A DNA stretch of 64,000 nucleotides from Patescibacteria group bacterium (GTDB lineage Bacteria > Patescibacteriota > Patescibacteriia > SBBC01 > CAIJZX01). The notes beneath the pieces are model-generated. The model was not told the DNA's origin. It saw only the letters and a list, made by a program, of their open reading frames with translations, and made no database searches. How positions within the stretch are numbered: the stretch's first letter is position 1; each line of letters starts with the position of its first letter. The position numbers and the translations under genes were made by a program. The DNA lies in assembly GCA_038065275.1 (NCBI GenBank), contig JBBTRH010000007.1:2873-66872 (forward strand), read 5' to 3'. This document shows, piece by piece, positions 36,413-48,683 of the stretch.

Positions 36413-38047
36413 CTAGGTGCTCCCCAACCGCAGACCGTTCTTCACCGTCCGCGGGAAGACGAAATAGTTCTGGATCTGCTCGAACTTTTTCTTCAGGCCG
36501 CTGTAACGGAAGACGCGGAGGCCGGGATCGCCGTTCCGGTATGTCCCGGTGATGATTTCTTCGCGGCCGTCGCGGTTGACATCCAGGACGGTCAACGTCA
36601 CGCCGCCCCGGTAGGCCTTCGACGTCGGCAAGAAGTGCGCTCGGAGTTTGCCGTTGATATCGAAGACGTTGATGTCCGAGTAATACCCCGGTCCGCCGAC
36701 GGTGATGATGTTCGCCCGGCCAGTGCCGAAGACGTCGCCGCTGGCCACGGTCAGCCCCGAAGTAAACTGGATGGGGTAGGGATTAAAGCGACGCACCACT
36801 TTCAGCTCATTCTTGTCATTCAGGTTGAGAATCGTTACTGAGCGGCCGTTGAGGCGCGGGGCCACGATGATCTCCGCCCGGGCATCGCCATCGAGATCGC
36901 CAGTTGCAATCGAGTACCCTTGACGCTGGGTCCGGTCGTAGGCGAACCCTTGGGCCAAGCTGGTGAATTTTTTCGTGGTCTGGTTATAAGTCCAAATACG
37001 AATCTGCGGGTAAGACTTGGCCGGAACGGTGATGAGCTCGTCAACACCGTCAGCGTTCACGTCGCCCGCCGCGACCGCCACCCCGGTTTTCCGCTCGGTG
37101 GAATAGGGATTGAAGCTGGTGACGAGCCGGCCGTCAGGCGTAAACACTTTCACCAGCGGGTCAGTGCCGGCGCCGGTTCCGACAATGACGTCGGCTTGAT
37201 GGTCCCCGGTGACGTCCCCCGCGGCGACGTTAATCCCGTTTCGATCTGATTTGGCGAACGCGTTGAACTGCTTGGTCGTTTTTTTCGTGACGGGGTCAAT
37301 CACCCGCACTGTCGGTTCGCGACCCGGAGCCAAACCGGCCACGATGATGTCCTTGATAACATGCACCGGTCCGCCGCCGGTCGGTGACGGTTTGTCGGGT
37401 GAAACAACAGGCCCAACGCATGATTGCTTGATCAGCGGCACGTCGAGTCCGGCCGGACAACCGTTGGTGGCGGTGCAAGTCCGGCTCTGGGTGCCGCTGA
37501 CACAGGCCGTCCATTCCGAACAGGTATAGGTTGGAACGCACGCCTGCAACGTGGCCGCGGTGGTTTTCGTAGCCACGTTAGACATGGTCGAGACGTTGCC
37601 GGCCTCATCGGTCGACTTCAAAGCGAAGAAGTACGTGGTGGCCGGTTGGAGGTTGGTGACCGTGGCGGTCTCGGTCGTGCCGGCCGGAGCCGGGATTGGC
37701 GGCCCAAGTACCAAGATGGCTGAATCGAAGGATGCTTCGGTGATCGGACTGGCGGCGTACCGCAGGTTGTAGCTGGTTGCTTGGCCGACGTTGCCGTCGT
37801 CACCAGGCGCCGTCCAGGTCAGCGTCACGGCCGTGGCCGTTGATGGCGCCGATTGTTCGCTGACCGGGCCCGGGATGAACAAAAACCCGGCGCCCGGACT
37901 GACGAACAGGGCGGTGCCGAGCGCCAGCGAGATGAGGCTGAGGGAAATGGCAATCAAGCCAATCGACACTTGATGGACGGTGTTGATTCGTTGCTTGGTG
38001 GCGATTTCTGTGCGGCGCGGGGGCATAAAGAATCGTGATAATAGCAT
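36413..38047 (-). CDS. Cell-surface protein with a fibronectin type III domain and FG-GAP/VCBS-like repeats
   Basis: N-terminal TM/signal anchor, FN3-like segment (…LTWTAPGDDGNVGQATSYNLRY…), then repeated GDVxxDGxxEII propeller blades. Start at the first in-frame ATG (Met6 of the tracked ORF, which begins at a TTG). Confidence 0.7.
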   Translation of the reverse strand: MLLSRFFMPPRRTEIATKQRINTVHQVSIGLIAISLSLISLALGTALFVSPGAGFLFIPGPVSEQSAPSTATAVTLTWTAPGDDGNVGQATSYNLRYAASPITEASFDSAILVLGPPIPAPAGTTETATVTNLQPATTYFFALKSTDEAGNVSTMSNVATKTTAATLQACVPTYTCSEWTACVSGTQSRTCTATNGCPAGLDVPLIKQSCVGPVVSPDKPSPTGGGPVHVIKDIIVAGLAPGREPTVRVIDPVTKKTTKQFNAFAKSDRNGINVAAGDVTGDHQADVIVGTGAGTDPLVKVFTPDGRLVTSFNPYSTERKTGVAVAAGDVNADGVDELITVPAKSYPQIRIWTYNQTTKKFTSLAQGFAYDRTQRQGYSIATGDLDGDARAEIIVAPRLNGRSVTILNLNDKNELKVVRRFNPYPIQFTSGLTVASGDVFGTGRANIITVGGPGYYSDINVFDINGKLRAHFLPTSKAYRGGVTLTVLDVNRDGREEIITGTYRNGDPGLRVFRYSGLKKKFEQIQNYFVFPRTVKNGLRLGST

Positions 38048-38132
38048 ACTGAAAAACCGCAAAAATGTGAAGGGGGGTCAACTGAAGGAATTTTCTAAAG
38101 CACCCGAGAAAATTGATGGATGTTTTTTAACG

Positions 38133-40730
38133 TTAGGGTTTACCTCTTATTTTCTTCGGATAAAGCTTTTTAGCTTGACCGATGACTTCCTTCGCCGCCC
38201 AGTCAGGAGCATCACCGAAACTTTCCAAGTTCGTTCCGTCCGGCGCATATGTTGATACGACTTGTCGGGCACCGGATCCGATGCCTCCAGCTTTCACAAT
38301 CGCGCCTAAAGATTTCAGCGACTCTTTGGCGGCAATGGTCGTGGCCGGATTATCACTGCCGCCATCGGCTGAAACCAAGACTAATCGTAAACGTTCCTTG
38401 CCTGAAGTATGTTCACTCGCGTCTTCTTGAATCATTCGTCGAACGGTCTGCAATCCCAAGTGATCGGGAGTTCCGCCGCCGACATTCTCCTGCAAAGATC
38501 TCCAAACCCTGGCTTGTTCTTTCGGCCCCCATGATGTGCCGAGCGGCAATTCCACCTTACCCGATCCACCTTGAAAACTCACTAACGCCACGCGCAAATC
38601 CAGCGGAGAAATCAACTTAATTTTCTGTCGTTTGAACTCCTGGGCCGCCCCGTACATGGAATCCATCATCAGGAACACGAACGTTTGCTGATCTTCCCAT
38701 TTCGGCCGACCACTGCTTGGATCGGTCTCAGACATGGACCCGCTTTTATCAACCGTCAAAAATGCATCAAACCCGCCGTAAATTTGTTCACGTTCCACCT
38801 TTCGTTCGTACTTGGAAAAACCCGACGGATCAGCCTCGCCGGCCGCCATATCCAAAACCGTTTCCACCGGATCAACGAGTTCCTGACCGCGAGAAAGTCT
38901 GATGGGTGCGGTGTATCTAATTCGGTTTACTAAATTATCTTGAATGACTTTTTGCCATTCCGCCAGCAACCGTGATCGAATATTCCGTCCTTGGTTGTCT
39001 CTCTTTTCTCGTGCTTCGGAAATCTTTCTCATAATTACCTTGGCCTCTTCTGGCGTACAATCGGCCTCGGCGGCAAAACGAAGTGCGGCCAGCTCCTCCG
39101 GCGCTCGCTCTTTCTGCTCCAGGGCTCGCTCAGCATCAGCCATCAGTTTTTCCAGCTGTTCGTCACTTAACACTTCCGCCTCTTGTTCGCCAAAATCACC
39201 TTCAAAAGCATCATCAGATTTTTCTTCGTCCGTTTCTTGGACGTCCATGTTTGGATCACCCGGCGGGGTGGCGTCTAATCTCTGCCAACGCTGGCCATCC
39301 CAGGCTTCCGCCCAGGCATGCGCCGTGCCGGAAGACATCACGGTGGCATTCTGCTTATCTTTTACTTTAACATAATGGCCGGATACCAGACACGATGGAA
39401 TTCCTATTCGGCGCAATAAAGCCACAAAGTAGGTGTTGGCGACATCGCAATCCGCCTGCCGGTGTTGCTCGATGCGTGAAAAGTATTCATTCGGGTCGCC
39501 GGACCGATAAACCGCATTGAAACTGGAATCATTGGAGTATTTTAGTGTGCTTCTGACAAAAGCCTTCAACGCCCGAGCTTTATCAAGAGCTGATTGATTG
39601 GATCTTACAATTTCTTCCAACTTACGTTGAGTTTCAGGAGAAAGAACTTCTGTCCCTGGCTGTGGCGCACTGGGGGCAACTTCTAAAACCGGTGTTGTAT
39701 TTTTACCAATCTCGGCTGAAAAAGAAATGAGTCCACGTTGCTTACTGGCGTCGATAATGAAACTGCCATGTCCATCACTTTTCACCGGCAAGACTTCACC
39801 ACCATGGGTCCGGATGGTTTGGACATCAGGCGCGTATCCATAAGGCATCGGAAGAATGGTTCTCTTGCCTCCATGTATCGTTCCGGCTACGGTTTTCCTG
39901 GTTTTTGCATCAAGCGACGTTTCTTCAACATCAGCAAGCGAGCTAGCCGACTTCTCCCAGCGCATGGCTCGATTGTTCCAGGTGTCAAAATCATCACCAC
40001 GGTAATACCCGCCGTAGAATGGTCGGACAGTGAAATATGCGCCCGGTTCATTCTCTTTGGATCGTTCCATCTCCTCCATGCTTGGGGTCAACGTGTCCTC
40101 TTGCGGCGGCGGAACATTCAAATCGGGTTGCTCCTGTTTCTGTTTCATGACTTCCGGCGGCGGTGGCTCCTGGGCTTTCGCTCGAGCTTCTTCCGTATCA
40201 CGAGATTCCAACCAATCCAGTGCTCCGGCTAATCGTGATTCAAACCATTGAAATTTGCTCCCGTAACTGATATTCCCTGAAGCCATCAGTTCAGAAACAT
40301 CAACCTCTCCTTCGGTCGATTGGCTCTTTACAATCCGGGTAAAAATCCGCTCCACCTCCGGGCGAACTTTTGGCATCGGCTGACCCAACTGCTTTGCCCG
40401 AAAACAAGAGAGGAGTTCGTTAACCCGATTTGGTTCAAGGCCAGTTGGTTCAGTTTGAGCCATGACTTCCGCCTGTAAGGCTTCAGTGTTTTCTGGGGAC
40501 GCCCTGACCGATCGATCGTATGCGCCGAGGGTTTCAAAAACGTGTTTCGCCGTCCGGGCTGATTTGCTCCGCTTGCCCAGCGATTGCCAAGAGCGCAGGC
40601 CGGCAATTCCCTCTCTTGATTGTAGGGCCTGGCCGATAGCCGCATTTTTGGCCTGGCGAAAAGCGTCTTTGGCGTCAAAACTGGCGATCTCTGGTTGTTC
40701 GGGATGACGACTTAATTCCGGGTTAGACAT
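38133..40730 (-). CDS. Large protein with transglutaminase-like cysteine-protease core and C-terminal von Willebrand factor A domain
   Basis: TGc core …QADCDVANTYFVALLRRIGIPSCLVSGHYV…GTAHAWAEAWDGQRWQRLDATP (Cys-His-Asp). vWA with MIDAS motif VDKSGSMS. Its start overlaps the RT stop by 8 bp. Confidence 0.75.
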   Translation of the reverse strand: MSNPELSRHPEQPEIASFDAKDAFRQAKNAAIGQALQSREGIAGLRSWQSLGKRSKSARTAKHVFETLGAYDRSVRASPENTEALQAEVMAQTEPTGLEPNRVNELLSCFRAKQLGQPMPKVRPEVERIFTRIVKSQSTEGEVDVSELMASGNISYGSKFQWFESRLAGALDWLESRDTEEARAKAQEPPPPEVMKQKQEQPDLNVPPPQEDTLTPSMEEMERSKENEPGAYFTVRPFYGGYYRGDDFDTWNNRAMRWEKSASSLADVEETSLDAKTRKTVAGTIHGGKRTILPMPYGYAPDVQTIRTHGGEVLPVKSDGHGSFIIDASKQRGLISFSAEIGKNTTPVLEVAPSAPQPGTEVLSPETQRKLEEIVRSNQSALDKARALKAFVRSTLKYSNDSSFNAVYRSGDPNEYFSRIEQHRQADCDVANTYFVALLRRIGIPSCLVSGHYVKVKDKQNATVMSSGTAHAWAEAWDGQRWQRLDATPPGDPNMDVQETDEEKSDDAFEGDFGEQEAEVLSDEQLEKLMADAERALEQKERAPEELAALRFAAEADCTPEEAKVIMRKISEAREKRDNQGRNIRSRLLAEWQKVIQDNLVNRIRYTAPIRLSRGQELVDPVETVLDMAAGEADPSGFSKYERKVEREQIYGGFDAFLTVDKSGSMSETDPSSGRPKWEDQQTFVFLMMDSMYGAAQEFKRQKIKLISPLDLRVALVSFQGGSGKVELPLGTSWGPKEQARVWRSLQENVGGGTPDHLGLQTVRRMIQEDASEHTSGKERLRLVLVSADGGSDNPATTIAAKESLKSLGAIVKAGGIGSGARQVVSTYAPDGTNLESFGDAPDWAAKEVIGQAKKLYPKKIRGKP

Positions 40731-41805
40731 AATCAGTATTTAGTCCGAGGCTTAGGCGAAGTTTCTCCCGCAGGTTATAGCTTTTCAACTGCGCCAGTAA
40801 ACCAATGTATGAAGCGAGCTGTTTCCCGACCAGACTCTGATATCCTTGGCTAGCCGCGTCGCCAGCCACCGCCAACGATGCCCTCCGCAATCTGATTCTC
40901 GGTACCAACCCATAAGGAAAAGCTACGGCTCCCAACATATCAACTCCCTGACTTAAACTACGGATAATGATTTTCTCGTCTGGTAAGGTTAAGTGGAGTC
41001 GAGTACGTAAAAAATCTTTCGCTTTCTGCGATACCTCGATTAAATGATTTTTATTCGCGGACACGATGTAAAAGTCGTCATTATACCGAGCGTAGCAACG
41101 AATATCACACACTTGTTTCATGAAGTAATCGAACTCATGCAAATAGATATTGGCGAATACTTGGGAAGTAAGGTTGCCGAGCGGAATCCCACGACCGCCA
41201 CTTCTCGAGTCCGAGCCTCGAAGTCGAGGACTGACATCTCCGGCGGAGCCGGATCCGGCTTCGCCGGAAAAACTGTTAATAATTGTCCGGCACAGTCGGA
41301 TATATTGCGGATCCTTCACTTGGCGACGGATGAGTGACAGTAAAATCTGATGATCGACGCTCCCGAAAAAGTTAGCGACGTCTCCGTGAAAAACATAGAC
41401 CTCTCGAGAAAAACTCTTGCTTTCCTGCCGCAAAAAATCCCAGATCCGGCTGATAGCCGCTTGCGTGCCCTTTCCCAGCCGACACGAATATGAATCAAAA
41501 AAGAATTGCCGATCGAACAGCGGGCACAAGGCCGAATATATCGCTTGGTGCACAATTCGATCCCGCACCGTCGCTTTATGAATAGAACGAAATTTAGGAT
41601 CTCGAACATAAAATCGGTTGTACTCGTCGTGCCGGTACGTTCCCGACTTAAGCTCTTTCGACAACTGCATCAGCTCCGATTCTAAATGGCGCTCGAAATC
41701 GATAACATCCCGTCGTTCCTGTTTTCCGCGTCGAAACCGTCTCCAGGCAAGATAGAGATTATCAAATCCTATTAACCCACTAAATGTTTGCAAACTATAT
41801 GTCAC
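40723..41805 (-). CDS. Diversity-generating retroelement reverse transcriptase
   Basis: RT motifs RSIHKATVRDRIVHQAIY, SYSCRLGKGTQAAI, FHGDVANFFGSVDH, the DGR-type motif GIPLGNLTSQVFANIYL (with the [I/L]GxxxSQ signature) and catalytic YARYNDDFYIV. GTG start with no ribosome-binding site. The gene has lower GC than its surroundings. Confidence 0.85.
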   Translation of the reverse strand: MTYSLQTFSGLIGFDNLYLAWRRFRRGKQERRDVIDFERHLESELMQLSKELKSGTYRHDEYNRFYVRDPKFRSIHKATVRDRIVHQAIYSALCPLFDRQFFFDSYSCRLGKGTQAAISRIWDFLRQESKSFSREVYVFHGDVANFFGSVDHQILLSLIRRQVKDPQYIRLCRTIINSFSGEAGSGSAGDVSPRLRGSDSRSGGRGIPLGNLTSQVFANIYLHEFDYFMKQVCDIRCYARYNDDFYIVSANKNHLIEVSQKAKDFLRTRLHLTLPDEKIIIRSLSQGVDMLGAVAFPYGLVPRIRLRRASLAVAGDAASQGYQSLVGKQLASYIGLLAQLKSYNLREKLRLSLGLNTDYV

Positions 41806-42164
41806 AAGATTCTTTCGACCCGCCGGTCGTTATAAAGATTTATAAAACCTATCAGATTTTCATTCCGCTACTGGCGAATTTCCCGAAACCGCAACGATAT
41901 ACTCTCGGACAGGTGATTGATCGTTCCCTTTTAAGCATGTTGGAATACATCTTTGAGGCCAATGCTATGCCGCTACCCTTGCGAGAGTCCTTACTCCTCC
42001 GAGCGATGGCGAAATGCGAATTGACAAAGATACTTATTCGGCTGTCATGCGAGAGTAGCATCATCAATAACACGCAGTACTTCCAACTCATGTCTAATCT
42101 TCAGGAGGTTGGTAAAATGCTGGGAGGATGGATCAAATACATTCGCCATCTGCCGGTAAAGTAA
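41784..42164 (+). CDS. avd: Avd-like four-helix-bundle protein (accessory variability determinant candidate)
   Basis: 126 aa with …FPKPQRYTLGQVIDRSLLSMLEYIFEAN… and C-terminal …EVGKMLGGWIKYI, matching the layout of the four-helix-bundle (bAvd) family. It ends 12 bp before the TR but is on the opposite strand, and its start overlaps the RT start head-to-head. Confidence 0.55.
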   Translation: MFANYMSQDSFDPPVVIKIYKTYQIFIPLLANFPKPQRYTLGQVIDRSLLSMLEYIFEANAMPLPLRESLLLRAMAKCELTKILIRLSCESSIINNTQYFQLMSNLQEVGKMLGGWIKYIRHLPVK

Positions 42165-42175
42165 TGACTGTTCTC

Positions 42176-42299
42176 ACAACGACCGCGGGGCGGGCACCCA
42201 ACTTCGGGTTCGAATTGTCAGCGTCGTTCCAGTTCACGTTGACCTGCCTATCCTGCGGATTCCAGTTGGCATTGGCGACCTTCGATGACGACACGCGGC
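42176..42299 (-). repeat. DGR template repeat (TR)
   Basis: 124 bp; in minus-strand sense rich in AAY codons (…AAT GCC AAC TGG AAT…AAC GTG AAC TGG AAC…). It differs from the VR at 18 positions, 17 of them TR adenines. Non-coding; the overlapping tracked ORFs are rejected. Confidence 0.9.
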
Positions 42300-42513
42300 C
42301 ACGCCCCGTATTCCTTGATCCATCCATACGCGCGGAGCCTTCCGCAGAAAACCCCTGACCGATATTCCCACAAGGAACGTCGTTGTGCTTCACTTGTTCA
42401 TCCCGCCCGGAGCCAACACTGTTGGATCTCCGATTCGGTGGAATGAGAGTCGGCGAACCAATCTCTCACATACGTATGTCGTACAGGAGGGTGGCTTCAT
42501 AAGCCGAAAATGG

Positions 42514-43164
42514 CTATCTGATTATTCTGTTGGCAATGATCGGTACTTCCCGTAAAAAATACTTCTTTACCTGCGCCCAGGTAGCGTCAAAATATATTTC
42601 CGGGTTTGGGTCGGTTTCGGCGTCTTCAAAAAAGACCAAGCTCTTCAAAATGTGGTGGTAATTGTGAGCCACCGACGGATACTGAATTTTCAATCTCTTA
42701 ATAATGTCCTCCAAGGATTCAACATTATTGGCGCACCAGTACAAATCAAAATAATCTCTTTTTTTACCGCGCTGTGAGATGGCGGTGATCTTCATGACCG
42801 CGATATCAAGCTGATTCAGTATCCGGATCGATCCGTAACGGAGAAAATTTTGTTTTGGGAGAAAGAATGGGTAGGCGATGAAACTTATTTTGCTTTTGGA
42901 CAGCTCGCCGTAAATGGTATTTTTTTCTTCCACGGTCGTCTCCCAGTTTTTATAGCGGGCAAAGTTCGATAGCAACTTTTTGGTATCAAAATCTGAATCG
43001 AGCGTAAAAAAATCTAAATCCAGAGACCGACGATGGCCGGCCTGAAGCGCCAGAGCCGTTCCGCCCGCCAAATACCATCCCGACGTAGTAAGCCATTGCT
43101 GTTGAGACAAAAAATCAAGTGCCTTCCTAGTGCGGTGCGGTAATGTTTGGTATTGCCAGTTCAT
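42514..43164 (-). CDS. AbiEii/AbiGii-family nucleotidyltransferase (type IV toxin-like)
   Basis: LAGGTALALQAGHRRSLDLDFF motif typical of DUF1814/AbiEii nucleotidyltransferases; AT-rich. Confidence 0.65.
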   Translation of the reverse strand: MNWQYQTLPHRTRKALDFLSQQQWLTTSGWYLAGGTALALQAGHRRSLDLDFFTLDSDFDTKKLLSNFARYKNWETTVEEKNTIYGELSKSKISFIAYPFFLPKQNFLRYGSIRILNQLDIAVMKITAISQRGKKRDYFDLYWCANNVESLEDIIKRLKIQYPSVAHNYHHILKSLVFFEDAETDPNPEIYFDATWAQVKKYFLREVPIIANRIIR

Positions 43165-43385
43165 GCTTTGAGTAGAAGTGTCCAGAGCGCCCTAGTCCTC
43201 GGTCGCAGACTTCGGGAACGTGTGATTATTTTTTTTAGCAGTTTTTGATCATAAAAATCCAAGACCCACCGCGCCTCTTTATCGTTCCCAAAATCAGCCA
43301 CCCGTTCAACAATATATTGGGCGTTCTTACGCGGATCAATATTTTTGGGATCAACATCCCAAAATAGCGTCGGCCTAAATTTCAT
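43161..43385 (-). CDS. Small hypothetical protein (possible cognate partner of the AbiEii-like gene)
   Basis: 74 aa; 4-bp overlap with the downstream nucleotidyltransferase gene suggests translational coupling. Confidence 0.4.
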   Translation of the reverse strand: MKFRPTLFWDVDPKNIDPRKNAQYIVERVADFGNDKEARWVLDFYDQKLLKKIITRSRSLRPRTRALWTLLLKA

Positions 43386-43458
43386 ATCACTATCAGTATA
43401 TCAGATTGCAAGCTCATTCGAAATGATAAATAATAAAGAAAAGTCTAGCCATTAAAAC

Positions 43459-46140
43459 TTAAAGTATCTCAACAACGACCGCGGGGCGGGCACCCAACCC
43501 CGGGCCCGACCTGCCAGCGTCGCTCCAGCTCACGCTGACCCGCCTACCCCGCGGATCCCAGTGGGCATCGGCGACCCCCGATGACGACACGCGGCTGTCT
43601 AATAGCCATGACCATTGAGATTTGGTCGCATCGTCGTCATAAGCGTCGAAACTGTGATTATTATGCTCTTCAAGTTCACGGCGTTGAAGAAGAAGATATT
43701 CGGACATCGTTAAGCCATTCCACTTTTTTTGTTGAAACAGCGTTTCCAGTTGATCCGGCGTTTTACCCTTCGTTTCCGACGGAACTGGTCTTGATTGGTA
43801 CATTAGCATATATGCTTTCACCGGACGGTTACGGGTTTGTGATTGTTTTGTTCCCTCGGCAATGTATGGATCGCCGTATTGATCGGGGGCGGACAAGCCG
43901 GTATGAGGTTTTTTAGCCATCTGCTCAATAACGGCGTTGATGGATCGCCCTTGAAGTTCGGCCTGCGGCAATATCATCGCCTTATCAAACCCCATTTTCA
44001 GCGCTTCTCGAATTCGCGCTTCGCCCTCCGGGGAGAATCGAATTTCTTTCGGCAGATTGTCGACAAAGTCGTAGAGGTCGTGTTCTTCATAGAACTCCTC
44101 CGAAACGCGCCGTGTTTCCGTAACGTCAAGCTTGATTTCCTTTCCTTCAAACCTTTCGGCAAAAGTCAACGAGGCGGCTGCCCATTCGCGTCGCAGGACT
44201 CGTTGGTCAACTAACTCAATGCCTGCTTCGCCCTCCATCACGACTTTACCCTGATGCGCGCCTTTTCCAACTCCTAACATACGCCATGGTCGTTTGCTAC
44301 GGTCTCCTTTTTTCATCCACTGCGACCGGCCGCCCGTTTGTTCGGGACTGTACACCACTTCCGTGCCGTCAGCTAAAAACTTGCTGGCCTCAACCGGTTT
44401 CGGGGCCTCTTTTAATGTTTCGGCTTCTCGCGGTACGCGCGGAGACAGAGCGCCGATTTCTTGCGGGGTGAGAAATCGATGTCCGCCTTCGGTATGAATG
44501 GAGTCCACCGATTCATCCAGCCGATAGGCCTGAAGAAATTTCCCTAGCAGGACGCGATCTTCCGACGGTAAACCCTTCCGGCCGGCCCATTCGTGCAACT
44601 GGTGGGTCAGAAACTCGGTCAGGCTTTGCCGGCGCATGCTGTGAAGCGCTTTCCGGTAGGCGCCGAGCCAGGACAAGACCAGGCCGGTATCAAGCACCGC
44701 CGCCCGCAGGTAGGAGGCTTCCCTTTCCGTCGGGGTCAAGGCGTTGGCTTGGCCGGTATAGCTACGCTGGATGTCGGCCATAAGATTAGCAAACCGCCAC
44801 AGCGTTCCGCCGGCTTCTGGCTGGGTTTTTAGTTCCTGGCGCTTAACATTGGTGGTGGCGTCCACCACGTCTTCATATTCCGGCGCAAGTTCCTCGGCCG
44901 GTAGACGAAGACGGCCGTTTTGGTCCATCAGTCCGGCCGTCAGCAATTCGTAGAGTTCCGGATTTTCCGGCGTCTGTGGCTGGTAGCCGATTTCTATTTC
45001 CCCCAACTCGCGAGCGACTTCAATCGGCAGATCCGACCGGTCGGGGTGTTTTTCCGACGGCAGGTTGGCCGAGCCGATAAACCCGAACTCGGACGAAAGC
45101 CGCTCAACCCGGCCGGCCCAAGCCGCGAAGGTGATGGCCTCGCCCGGCCGGCGGCCGGAGATCTGTTTGATCAGCGACCGCAGAGCATCCGGTGGATAGC
45201 CGTTCATTTCATCCATGTAGAAAATACCGCCCGGCCCTGGTTCCGTGCTGCGCGAGGTTTCCTTGCCGGTTAAGGCCTGACCCAGCTGACCGTAGTGGAT
45301 GTACGATCCTTCGCCGTCAATGGCTTTCGAACCCAGCAAAGGACGAATGTCGGATTTGGCCTCTTCCCCGACTTCAAGCGGGGATCGACCGACCAGGCGT
45401 CGGGATGCGTTCCTGGCGAGCGCGGTTTTTCCTGTCCCGGTTTCGCCGACAAGAAGGAGCGGGCGATTTTGGTTGAAGATGACCAGATACTCGATCATTT
45501 TCTCAAAATGTTGTTCGCGCGACGGAGTCCAGGCGAATCCTTCGGTTCGGAGTTGGTCGTTGTATTCCACCATGCGCTCAAACGACAACCGAGCCGCAAA
45601 CTCAGGGCTTTGATGTTCCAAAGAATCCAATCGCCGTTCTTGCGCCTCGATCTGCGCGGATAACTCACCAAGGCGGATTTGCGTCAGTTCGTCAGGGTCG
45701 CGGTCGCGATGCCGGAAAACAGTGCGGTAGAGTTTTTCTCTCTCGGCGAGGTACGAGTCGCGAGTGTCGCGCAGCTTTCGAAAATCAACCATCGGTTCGG
45801 CCAGCTTGATCCTTTCTTCGTACCACTGACGTAATTTTTCCATGAATGCTTTTTGTGTTTCTGGATTGTGCCACCGCTGTGCGATGGCATCTTTGACGGT
45901 AGCTATCCTATCAGGGCCTGGATGCTCTTCGTGCCGCCGGCGACCGTAGTCTTCCCACAACGCAAAAAGCTCTTCCGCTCCTCGAACCGCCTCGGAGTTG
46001 AAGACGGAAGTCTCCGGCGATCCTTGCGGTTCTGCCCCTTGCGGTGAGCGCGTCGAACCCGTGGTCTCGGGAGGGAGCGGTTCTACCTCTTGCTCGATTC
46101 TTTCCCAAATTGGATGGGTACCGCCTCGTTCAGAGCTCAT
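43459..46140 (-). CDS. DGR target: AAA+ ATPase (AAA_5/MoxR-like) with C-terminal C-type-lectin-like variable domain
   Basis: Walker A LLLVGETGTGKTALA and Walker B IFYMDEMNG. The VR forms the last 41 codons. Start set at Met14 (MSSERGG…) of the tracked ORF. No signal peptide. Confidence 0.8.
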   Translation of the reverse strand: MSSERGGTHPIWERIEQEVEPLPPETTGSTRSPQGAEPQGSPETSVFNSEAVRGAEELFALWEDYGRRRHEEHPGPDRIATVKDAIAQRWHNPETQKAFMEKLRQWYEERIKLAEPMVDFRKLRDTRDSYLAEREKLYRTVFRHRDRDPDELTQIRLGELSAQIEAQERRLDSLEHQSPEFAARLSFERMVEYNDQLRTEGFAWTPSREQHFEKMIEYLVIFNQNRPLLLVGETGTGKTALARNASRRLVGRSPLEVGEEAKSDIRPLLGSKAIDGEGSYIHYGQLGQALTGKETSRSTEPGPGGIFYMDEMNGYPPDALRSLIKQISGRRPGEAITFAAWAGRVERLSSEFGFIGSANLPSEKHPDRSDLPIEVARELGEIEIGYQPQTPENPELYELLTAGLMDQNGRLRLPAEELAPEYEDVVDATTNVKRQELKTQPEAGGTLWRFANLMADIQRSYTGQANALTPTEREASYLRAAVLDTGLVLSWLGAYRKALHSMRRQSLTEFLTHQLHEWAGRKGLPSEDRVLLGKFLQAYRLDESVDSIHTEGGHRFLTPQEIGALSPRVPREAETLKEAPKPVEASKFLADGTEVVYSPEQTGGRSQWMKKGDRSKRPWRMLGVGKGAHQGKVVMEGEAGIELVDQRVLRREWAAASLTFAERFEGKEIKLDVTETRRVSEEFYEEHDLYDFVDNLPKEIRFSPEGEARIREALKMGFDKAMILPQAELQGRSINAVIEQMAKKPHTGLSAPDQYGDPYIAEGTKQSQTRNRPVKAYMLMYQSRPVPSETKGKTPDQLETLFQQKKWNGLTMSEYLLLQRRELEEHNNHSFDAYDDDATKSQWSWLLDSRVSSSGVADAHWDPRGRRVSVSWSDAGRSGPGLGARPAVVVEIL
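43472..43595 (-). repeat. DGR variable repeat (VR) inside the 3' end of the AAA+ ATPase gene
   Basis: 124 bp aligning with the TR end to end. It encodes …RVSSSGVADAHWDPRGRRVSVSWSDAGRSGPGLGARPAVVV, against TR-encoded …RVSSSKVANANWNPQDRQVNVNWNDADNSNPKLGARPAVVV. Both share a GC-rich 3' block GGTGCCCGCCCCGCGGTCGTTGT. Confidence 0.9.
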
Positions 46141-46166: not shown

Positions 46167-46271
46167 CCCAGCACCACAATGGTTGATTCGTTGTTATTTC
46201 TGAAAAAAGTGCAGTCTTTACTCACGTATACGTATTTTTTTTAGTTCGCATTATACCATTGTGGTGCTGGG
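46167..46271. repeat. CCCAGCACCACA inverted-repeat element, copy 2
   Basis: CCCAGCACCACAATGGT (46167-46183) and ACCATTGTGGTGCTGGG (46255-46271), a perfect 17-bp IR around a 71-bp AT-rich spacer. It lies in the divergent region between the DGR target gene and uvrB. Confidence 0.7.
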
Positions 46272-48503: not shown

Positions 48504-48563
48504 CTGACACTTGCGCTCCTGGCGGAACGTGCTAAGATAGCCCCCGTTCTTTGTCATTTCTCC

Positions 48564-48683
48564 TTGTCCGACGAAGCCTTCTTGTCCACCGAAGCTTCAG
48601 CGTAGGTGGAGGCGTAGTCGGGCTTGTCCGACGAAGCCTTCTTGTCCACCGAAGCTTCAGCGTAGGTGGAGGCGTAGTCGGGC
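48564..48683. repeat. Perfect tandem duplication of a 60-bp unit
   Basis: TTGTCCGACGAAGCCTTCTTGTCCACCGAAGCTTCAGCGTAGGTGGAGGCGTAGTCGGGC occurs twice. Each unit contains the hairpin CCACC-N14-GGTGG. The array sits between a candidate promoter (TTGCGC-N16-TAAGAT, 48511-48538) and the M16 peptidase start. Confidence 0.85.

Follow-up and report, generated by a model that had tools for sequence, protein, structure and literature searches.

A chromosomal diversity-generating retroelement of Patescibacteria type with a predicted lectin-tipped ATPase as target and a conserved transglutaminase–VWA partner gene

We analyzed a stretch of 64,000 nucleotides (hereafter the window) from a Patescibacteria metagenome-assembled genome (MAG; assembly GCA_038065275.1, contig JBBTRH010000007.1, positions 2,873 to 66,872 of the forward strand), in which a diversity-generating retroelement (DGR) had been proposed at 40723–46140. 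DGRs are discussed here in terms of a reverse transcriptase (RT), the accessory protein Avd, the template repeat (TR), as well as the variable repeat (VR) in the gene of a target protein. In the NCBI record, the target is just an "AAA family ATPase," and RT, Avd, TR, and VR are not connected with each other. The parts of the element, together with a partner gene that lies outside the range of the original prediction, are arranged as follows:

43459–46140, minus strand: target (variable-protein) gene, 893 aa, in which a coiled region at the N-terminus is followed by an AAA_5 ATPase, a linker domain, and, at the C-terminus, a domain of predicted C-type-lectin (CLec) fold that contains the VR
43472–43595, minus strand: VR, 124 nt, whose last 27 nt (43472–43498) are an invariant GC-rich block, common to the TR, that resembles an initiation-of-mutagenic-homing (IMH) element
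42297–42512, minus strand: structured non-coding RNA element of about 215 nt with covariation, abutting the 5′ end of the TR
42176–42299, minus strand: TR, 124 nt, 27 adenines
41799–42164, plus strand: avd, 121 aa, encoded opposite to the TR and RT strand (Pfam bAvd, 1.1e-14; NCBIfam DivGenRetAVD, 2.5e-19)
40723–41805, minus strand: DGR RT, 360 aa, GTG start, with LGNLTSQ and YNDD motifs and a lineage-specific low-complexity insertion at about aa 177–203
38133–40730, minus strand: transglutaminase–VWA (TGase-VWA) partner gene, 865 aa (Pfam Transglut_core, 1.7e-15; VWA_2, 1.5e-6)

A repeat search returned one 124-nt direct repeat, the predicted TR/VR pair, whose copies were confirmed at 42176–42299 and 43472–43595 and are 85% identical. 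On the minus strand, the TR contains 27 adenines and the VR 10, and the 18 mismatches between them are 16 A>G, one A>C, and one T>G; by chance, 17 or more of the 18 mismatches would coincide with the 27 TR adenines with P=4e-13. When read in the target's frame, 26 of the 27 adenines occupy codon positions 1 or 2, eight AAY codons are present, and stop codons can be reached by mutation of A from two AAG codons only. Recoding of the 16 A-containing codons results in 1.3e15 theoretical protein variants. Both repeats are closed by the invariant 27-nt GC-rich block GTTGGGTGCCCGCCCCGCGGTCGTTGT, directly after which the homology ends; this block, a putative IMH-like element, is kept across loci. The VR had been described as the last 41 codons of an 893-aa open reading frame (ORF); the ORF and the 3′ location are right, and the VR stops 10 nt before the stop codon, so that it covers approximately codons −45 to −4. 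The TR starts 11 nt from the avd stop codon. A scan in which the TR adenines were treated as wildcards found no second VR in the 64-kb window, and no terminator was detected over background after the VR.

The RT that belongs to these repeats had been predicted to be a 360-aa protein with a DGR signature and YNDD, and indeed the translation of 40723–41805 contains both IPLGNLTSQVFANIYL and YNDD. Its best match in the PDB is the RT of the Bordetella DGR (bRT, 8ub7; E 6.1e-32), whereas group II and retron RTs reach about 1e-15 or worse (3e-15 at best), and the affiliation with DGR RTs rather than with retron or group II RTs, on which the original prediction had made its refutation depend, is indicated by sequence match. 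The catalytic motifs are invariant in an alignment of eight family RTs from the window and seven related loci, and an RT-based genome scan returned only four distant relatives with 37–43% identity, which are from unrelated MAGs. The Avd-like gene also stood up, with a Pfam bAvd score of 55.2 bits against a cutoff of 40, while the top NCBIfam match, DivGenRetAVD, scores 69.5 bits and thus remains under its equivalog cutoff of 80, and phmmer found no match for Avd in the PDB. By comparison with homologues, which begin with M(T/P/S)Q.SFDPPVV, we reset the start of avd, whose ORF had been listed as 41784–42164 on the plus strand, to the ATG at 41799. With this start, the avd ATG and the RT GTG overlap head-to-head by 7 nt (41799–41805), and related loci are similarly organized with 0–25 nt; the overlap leaves no intergenic room for promoters or ribosome-binding sites, and the avd mRNA would be wholly antisense to any TR-RT read-through transcript. 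The order on the DNA, with the TR running from 42299 to 42176 (−), avd at 41799–42164 (+), and the RT from 41805 to 40723 (−), matches architecture B3, in which the order is TR-(avd)-RT with a reverse-strand avd and which accounts for 90% of the DGRs in Candidate Phyla Radiation (CPR) bacteria (Wu et al., 2018, PMC5758913). The predicted co-orientation of all components except Avd on the minus strand is therefore correct, but an opposite-strand avd is expected in the known B3 type and not in the canonical Bordetella arrangement.

The target protein has 893 residues if translated from the ATG at 46140 and 906 residues from the TTG at 46179, and the NCBI call has 794. Its ATPase contains a Walker A motif (GETGTGKT) and a Walker B motif (FYMDEMN), and a PDB sequence search with the ATPase part gave nothing informative. 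In the predicted structure, the VR lies inside a confidently modeled CLec fold at the C-terminus and covers the last strands of this domain. PADLOC contained no defence-system model that matched the target or the TGase-VWA protein. As a side observation, a 31-nt match with 81% identity, borderline versus chance, connects 41215–41245 in the window-specific low-complexity insertion of the RT with 45989–46019, a window-specific 9-aa insertion near the N-terminus of the target, and the reading frames of the two sides differ.

The arrangement is not restricted to the window. Homologues of the target with 51–65% identity, and more distant ones in addition, are from other Patescibacteria, and the full cassette of an AAA_5-CLec target, a TR, an opposite-strand avd, an RT, and a TGase-VWA gene for about 860 aa downstream of the RT was found in 8 of 8 further family loci. 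In the window, the start of the TGase-VWA gene overlaps the RT stop by 8 nt, and the two genes are translationally coupled. The protein has an intact Cys428-His471-Asp486 triad and an intact metal ion-dependent adhesion site (MIDAS) motif DxSxS, which are invariant in relatives, and column identity is 71%; a PDB sequence search was uninformative for this protein as well. When the TGase-VWA was used as an independent metagenome probe, 69 loci were obtained, 35 of them with an RT within reach and in several gene orders, and other loci from this probe have the TGase-VWA beside an AAA_5 gene with no RT detectable within reach. Individual loci vary: the RT instead of avd is inverted in L051, the CLec gene is directly followed by the TGase-VWA in L021 with neither RT nor avd between them, the ATPase is separated from the downstream ORFs in L015, and L023 and L045 have two VRs each with one TR serving both. 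The ATPase with its variable lectin domain is likely a ligand sensor or adaptor that cooperates with the co-transcribed TGase-VWA protein, which would be in line with known AAA_5/MoxR-VWA pairs. As a constant, highly conserved, and motif-intact component, the TGase-VWA protein is a concrete partner for probing the function of the CPR "AAA-CLec" variable proteins.

The adenine-specific signature recurs in these relatives. In the window and seven of the eight loci, TR and VR differ at 121 A sites and at 4 non-A sites, and 24 further TR/VR pairs in the wider family contribute 405 A-site substitutions. Taking the window VR and the 31 related TR/VR pairs (L005–L083), A>G accounts for 91 of 121 substitutions (75%) in the close loci and for 270 of 405 (67%) in the wider family. 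For bRT, the order in vitro is A>T > A>G > A>C (PMC7826257); the skew toward A>G deviates from this spectrum with a chi-square p=2e-20, although these are fixed VR sequences, so that selection may have contributed. If the skew is mutational, DGR RTs would differ in the repertoire that they generate. The rare non-A changes in VRs are frequently T>G.

A further conserved part of the family is the RNA upstream of the TR, which is common to 11 loci on the TR strand. RNAalifold folds it into a 5′ stem-loop that is connected by a variable linker to a long-range helix around a YGCG-capped hairpin. In a pair-count test, 96.9% of the cells are paired and double-sided changes occur in 22 of 36 pairs; these values were reached in none of 500 shuffles, and slid controls gave 4–5 double-change pairs. 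The covariance model R1 has one match in the window (181 bits), and weaker but correctly positioned matches were found upstream of the TR in three more distant DGR loci. No match was found in Rfam 15 at E<=1, including the motifs RT-1 to RT-19 (Weinberg et al., 2017), and the core motif had no match in viral contigs. In Bordetella, the RNA that flanks the TR is essential, and other DGRs were surveyed for only 40 nt upstream (Handa et al., 2024). By analogy, we hypothesize that the upstream RNA is the B3 counterpart of the Bordetella TR-flanking segments, for example as a stop or scaffold element. Since this covarying RNA lies at the 5′ boundary of the TR and is combined with an inverted avd, it offers a natural test of the reach of the Bordetella ribonucleoprotein model, with its upstream:downstream "cPRT Stop" and its Avd-binding stem-loop. 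In the window, GGAUGGAUCAA just 5′ of the TR is a perfect complement of UUGAUCCAUCC, which lies 3′ of the TR and is antisense to the codons of Avd G-W-I-K. A "cPRT Stop"-like upstream:downstream duplex is nevertheless unsupported, as inspection of the alignment showed that other loci keep 5–7 of 8 core pairs and that the avd wobble changes are uncompensated. A different conserved motif upstream of the TR, CUCACG...GAUGAAAAAAGCAAACCAAUGC with a hairpin (also written CUCACG...GCAAACCAAUGC), was seen in DGRs that belong to the same TGase-VWA/AAA family but are more distant (L028, L031, L039, L042, L043, L045, and L063) and may represent a second RNA class.

Two small genes are present in the window in addition to the cassette:

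43161–43385, minus strand: DUF6922 small protein, putative antitoxin, 74 aa (Pfam PF21956, 2.5e-17), overlapping the next gene by 4 nt
42514–43164, minus strand: AbiEii-family nucleotidyltransferase toxin, 216 aa (Pfam PF08843, 3.6e-15)

The AbiEii assignment has a Pfam score of 57 bits (cutoff 22.5), and the PADLOC AbiEii matches are weak. As type IV toxin–antitoxin (TA) systems of the AbiE type are defined by an AbiEii toxin and an AbiEi (COG5340) antitoxin, and the upstream partner is DUF6922 and not AbiEi, we refer to the genes as a TA-like pair. The other family loci that were examined lack the pair at this site, and in L005, a GIY-YIG gene is located between TR and avd in place of the TA-like pair. 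The element as a whole is flanked by housekeeping genes (RuvA, FemAB, UvrB, M16 peptidase, and Pol III delta) and is therefore chromosomal, and these flanks rule out a prophage origin. The GC content is 0.47–0.52 across 38000–44000, compared with about 0.56–0.62 in the flanks, and this drop is consistent with a horizontal acquisition of the cassette; in some other genomes, the cassette adjoins recombinase, transposase, or conjugation genes. Just downstream of uvrB, at 48563–48682, a 60-nt unit that includes a palindromic segment is perfectly duplicated in tandem.

All defining features that can be checked in silico are present at the locus, namely a DGR-clade RT, Avd, adenine-specific TR/VR differences, a CLec VR, and an IMH-like block, and this set of parts is complete and intact. 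In our assessment, the best explanation, with a probability of about 90%, is a chromosomal DGR with B3 architecture of the Patescibacteria type, target-VR ... TR-(avd)-RT. By analogy with the Bordetella phage DGR, the RT–Avd complex would bind an RNA that reaches from the structured element upstream across the TR into its downstream sequence, which is antisense to avd. The RT would copy the TR into cDNA with misincorporation only opposite template adenines, and the cDNA would replace the VR, guided by the common 27-nt GC-rich 3′ block; the priming and stop mechanism of the window DGR is likewise something that we infer. The outcome would be the recoding of 16 codons, with about 1e15 possible peptides, at the ligand-binding face of the CLec domain at the C-terminus of the ATPase.

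Several observations weigh against this explanation. One TR/VR mismatch, the T>G, is off adenine; the RT carries a low-complexity insertion of about 30 aa just before motif 4; the TA-like pair (43385–42514, 0.95 kb) is inserted exactly between the stop codon of the target and the RNA element; and P0053, the one further copy of the target protein in public assemblies, has an identical VR. The 100 nt that follow the VR contain no stable GC-rich hairpin or cruciform (z=0.71); such elements are not universal and occur in about 34% of DGRs (Wu et al., 2018, PMC5758913). A search for an Sp-like structure on the 3′ side of the TR, where Bordetella has its priming element and the window has the antisense of avd, yielded no convincing conserved structure (single-sequence z=0.14, covariation term −1.25); one long helix is retained there only via G-U changes in a region that also codes on the other strand. 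Mismatch, RT insertion, TA-like insertion, and identical VR could all be read as signs of a relic, that is, a once-active DGR whose TR/VR differences record past homing and whose target is no longer diversified in this lineage. We consider this improbable, as all ORFs are intact and the catalytic and structural motifs are invariant when compared with family members. The RT insertion is partly present in the closest relative, which also has 23 A-site differences between its TR and VR, the TA-like pair sits at a junction where it disrupts neither the target nor the RNA element, and the TR keeps its 27 adenines in ideal codon placement. In a sister element from Doudnabacteria, two 883-aa proteins (P0005 and P0054) differ at only 4 residues, all of them in the VR, and we take these VR-only differences as a proxy for population variation. 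From the intact parts and the sister elements, we infer ongoing activity in the host genome, as far as sequences can indicate it.

That the locus is not a DGR at all, and that an RT of retron, group II intron, or defence type lies near a 124-nt repeat from an ordinary partial gene duplication, is a reading that we regard as effectively refuted. It could draw on profile matches, since the best NCBIfam match of the RT is a group II intron RT/maturase model (126 bits, far under the cutoff of 300), no DGR RT model is among the NCBIfam matches, and PADLOC DRT models match the RT domain. These matches are opposed by bRT being the nearest solved relative by 17 orders of magnitude, by the LGxxxSQ motif and the adjacent Avd, and by the confinement of TR/VR mismatches to adenines, which is independently recurrent in more than 30 TR/VR pairs; moreover, no maturase or endonuclease domains and no intron RNA were found at the locus.

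A wider reading would see the DGR as a module of a conserved, Patescibacteria-specific intracellular system of five parts, with a sensor AAA_5 ATPase that carries a hypermutated lectin tip, the TGase-VWA as effector or partner, Avd, the RT, and the dedicated RNA 5′ of the TR. The RNA would replace functions that the avd 3′ end and the spacer have in Bordetella, such as cDNA stop or scaffold, and the RT would perhaps be intrinsically skewed toward A>G. We regard this system as a tentative proposal that is rather unlikely to hold in its entirety; if true, an episymbiotic bacterium would possess an adaptive-like recognition system, and the RNA would represent a new class of DGR RNA.

When compared with known systems, the DGR of the window is closest to the published B3 DGRs of CPR bacteria, with which it shares the host phylum, the reverse-strand avd between TR and RT, one neighboring target that has the VR at its C-terminus, and a P-loop/AAA (Midasin-like) region N-terminal to the VR, and from which it differs in nothing essential. 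CPR targets with Midasin/AAA P-loop domains were described as "UVR4" of category g1 with a VR of "unknown" fold (Wu et al., 2018, PMC5758913), whereas the VR domain of the window models as a CLec fold. According to a statement by Dore et al. (2024, PMC10907252), who cite Paul et al., the combination of AAA ATPase and CLec is the commonest CPR target, and a Patescibacteria-restricted DGR clade ("DGR clade 2") was described by Roux et al. (2021, PMC8144416). Because inverted avd genes and ATPase targets are usual in published CPR DGRs, the element belongs to an already known type; it is an ordinary representative in which both traits are the phylum norm, and the core finding chiefly has annotation value as one more example of a class that is abundant in CPR bacteria. 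The CLec model, the TGase-VWA partner, the covarying RNA, and the TA-like insertion may be additions to what has been published on CPR DGRs, part of which is perhaps already contained in Paul et al. (2017).

The mechanistic prototype is the DGR of Bordetella phage BPP-1 with its order mtd-avd-TR-brt (Handa et al., 2018, 2021, 2024). The window element resembles it in the homologous RT (E 6e-32) with LGxxxSQ and the equivalent of Arg74, in Avd, in the adenine-specific divergence, in the CLec variable domain, and in the GC-rich IMH-like block at the 3′ end of the VR. In contrast to BPP-1, which is phage-borne and has a tail-fibre target, the window element is chromosomal and targets a cytoplasmic ATPase. 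As its avd is inverted, the RNAs that flank the TR also differ: 5′ of the TR, there is a dedicated non-coding structured element instead of the avd 3′ end, and 3′ of the TR, there is antisense avd instead of a non-coding spacer. Furthermore, the window has no hairpin after the VR, and the fixed substitutions are 67–75% A>G, which contrasts with the preference of bRT for A>T in vitro.

On the side of function, the comparison leads to the "VMAP ternary" conflict systems of the MoxR-vWA type, whose lectin (FGS) domains are diversified by DGRs (Kaur et al., 2020, PMC7159879; Dore et al., 2024, PMC10907252). Both combine a MoxR-class (AAA_5) ATPase with a vWA protein and with a DGR by which a CLec/FGS-type domain is diversified, and transglutaminase-like peptidases also occur, if rarely, in the MoxR-vWA systems (Kaur et al., 2020, PMC7159879; Dore et al., 2024, PMC10907252). 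In the window, it is the ATPase and not the vWA protein to which the variable lectin domain is fused, and the vWA domain is fused to a transglutaminase core. The hosts are small-genome CPR bacteria in one case and multicellular cyanobacteria or proteobacteria in the other, and the RT clades are reported to be distinct, clade 2 for CPR and clade 5 for the MoxR-vWA systems. Judged by gene content without a VMAP profile, no third VMAP-type gene and no adaptor domains were seen in the conserved cassette. With the variable domain on the ATPase and no VMAP-type gene in this cassette, we do not assign the locus to the VMAP/MoxR-vWA ternary conflict systems. The MoxR-vWA systems are a functional analogue of the window cassette that belongs to another family.

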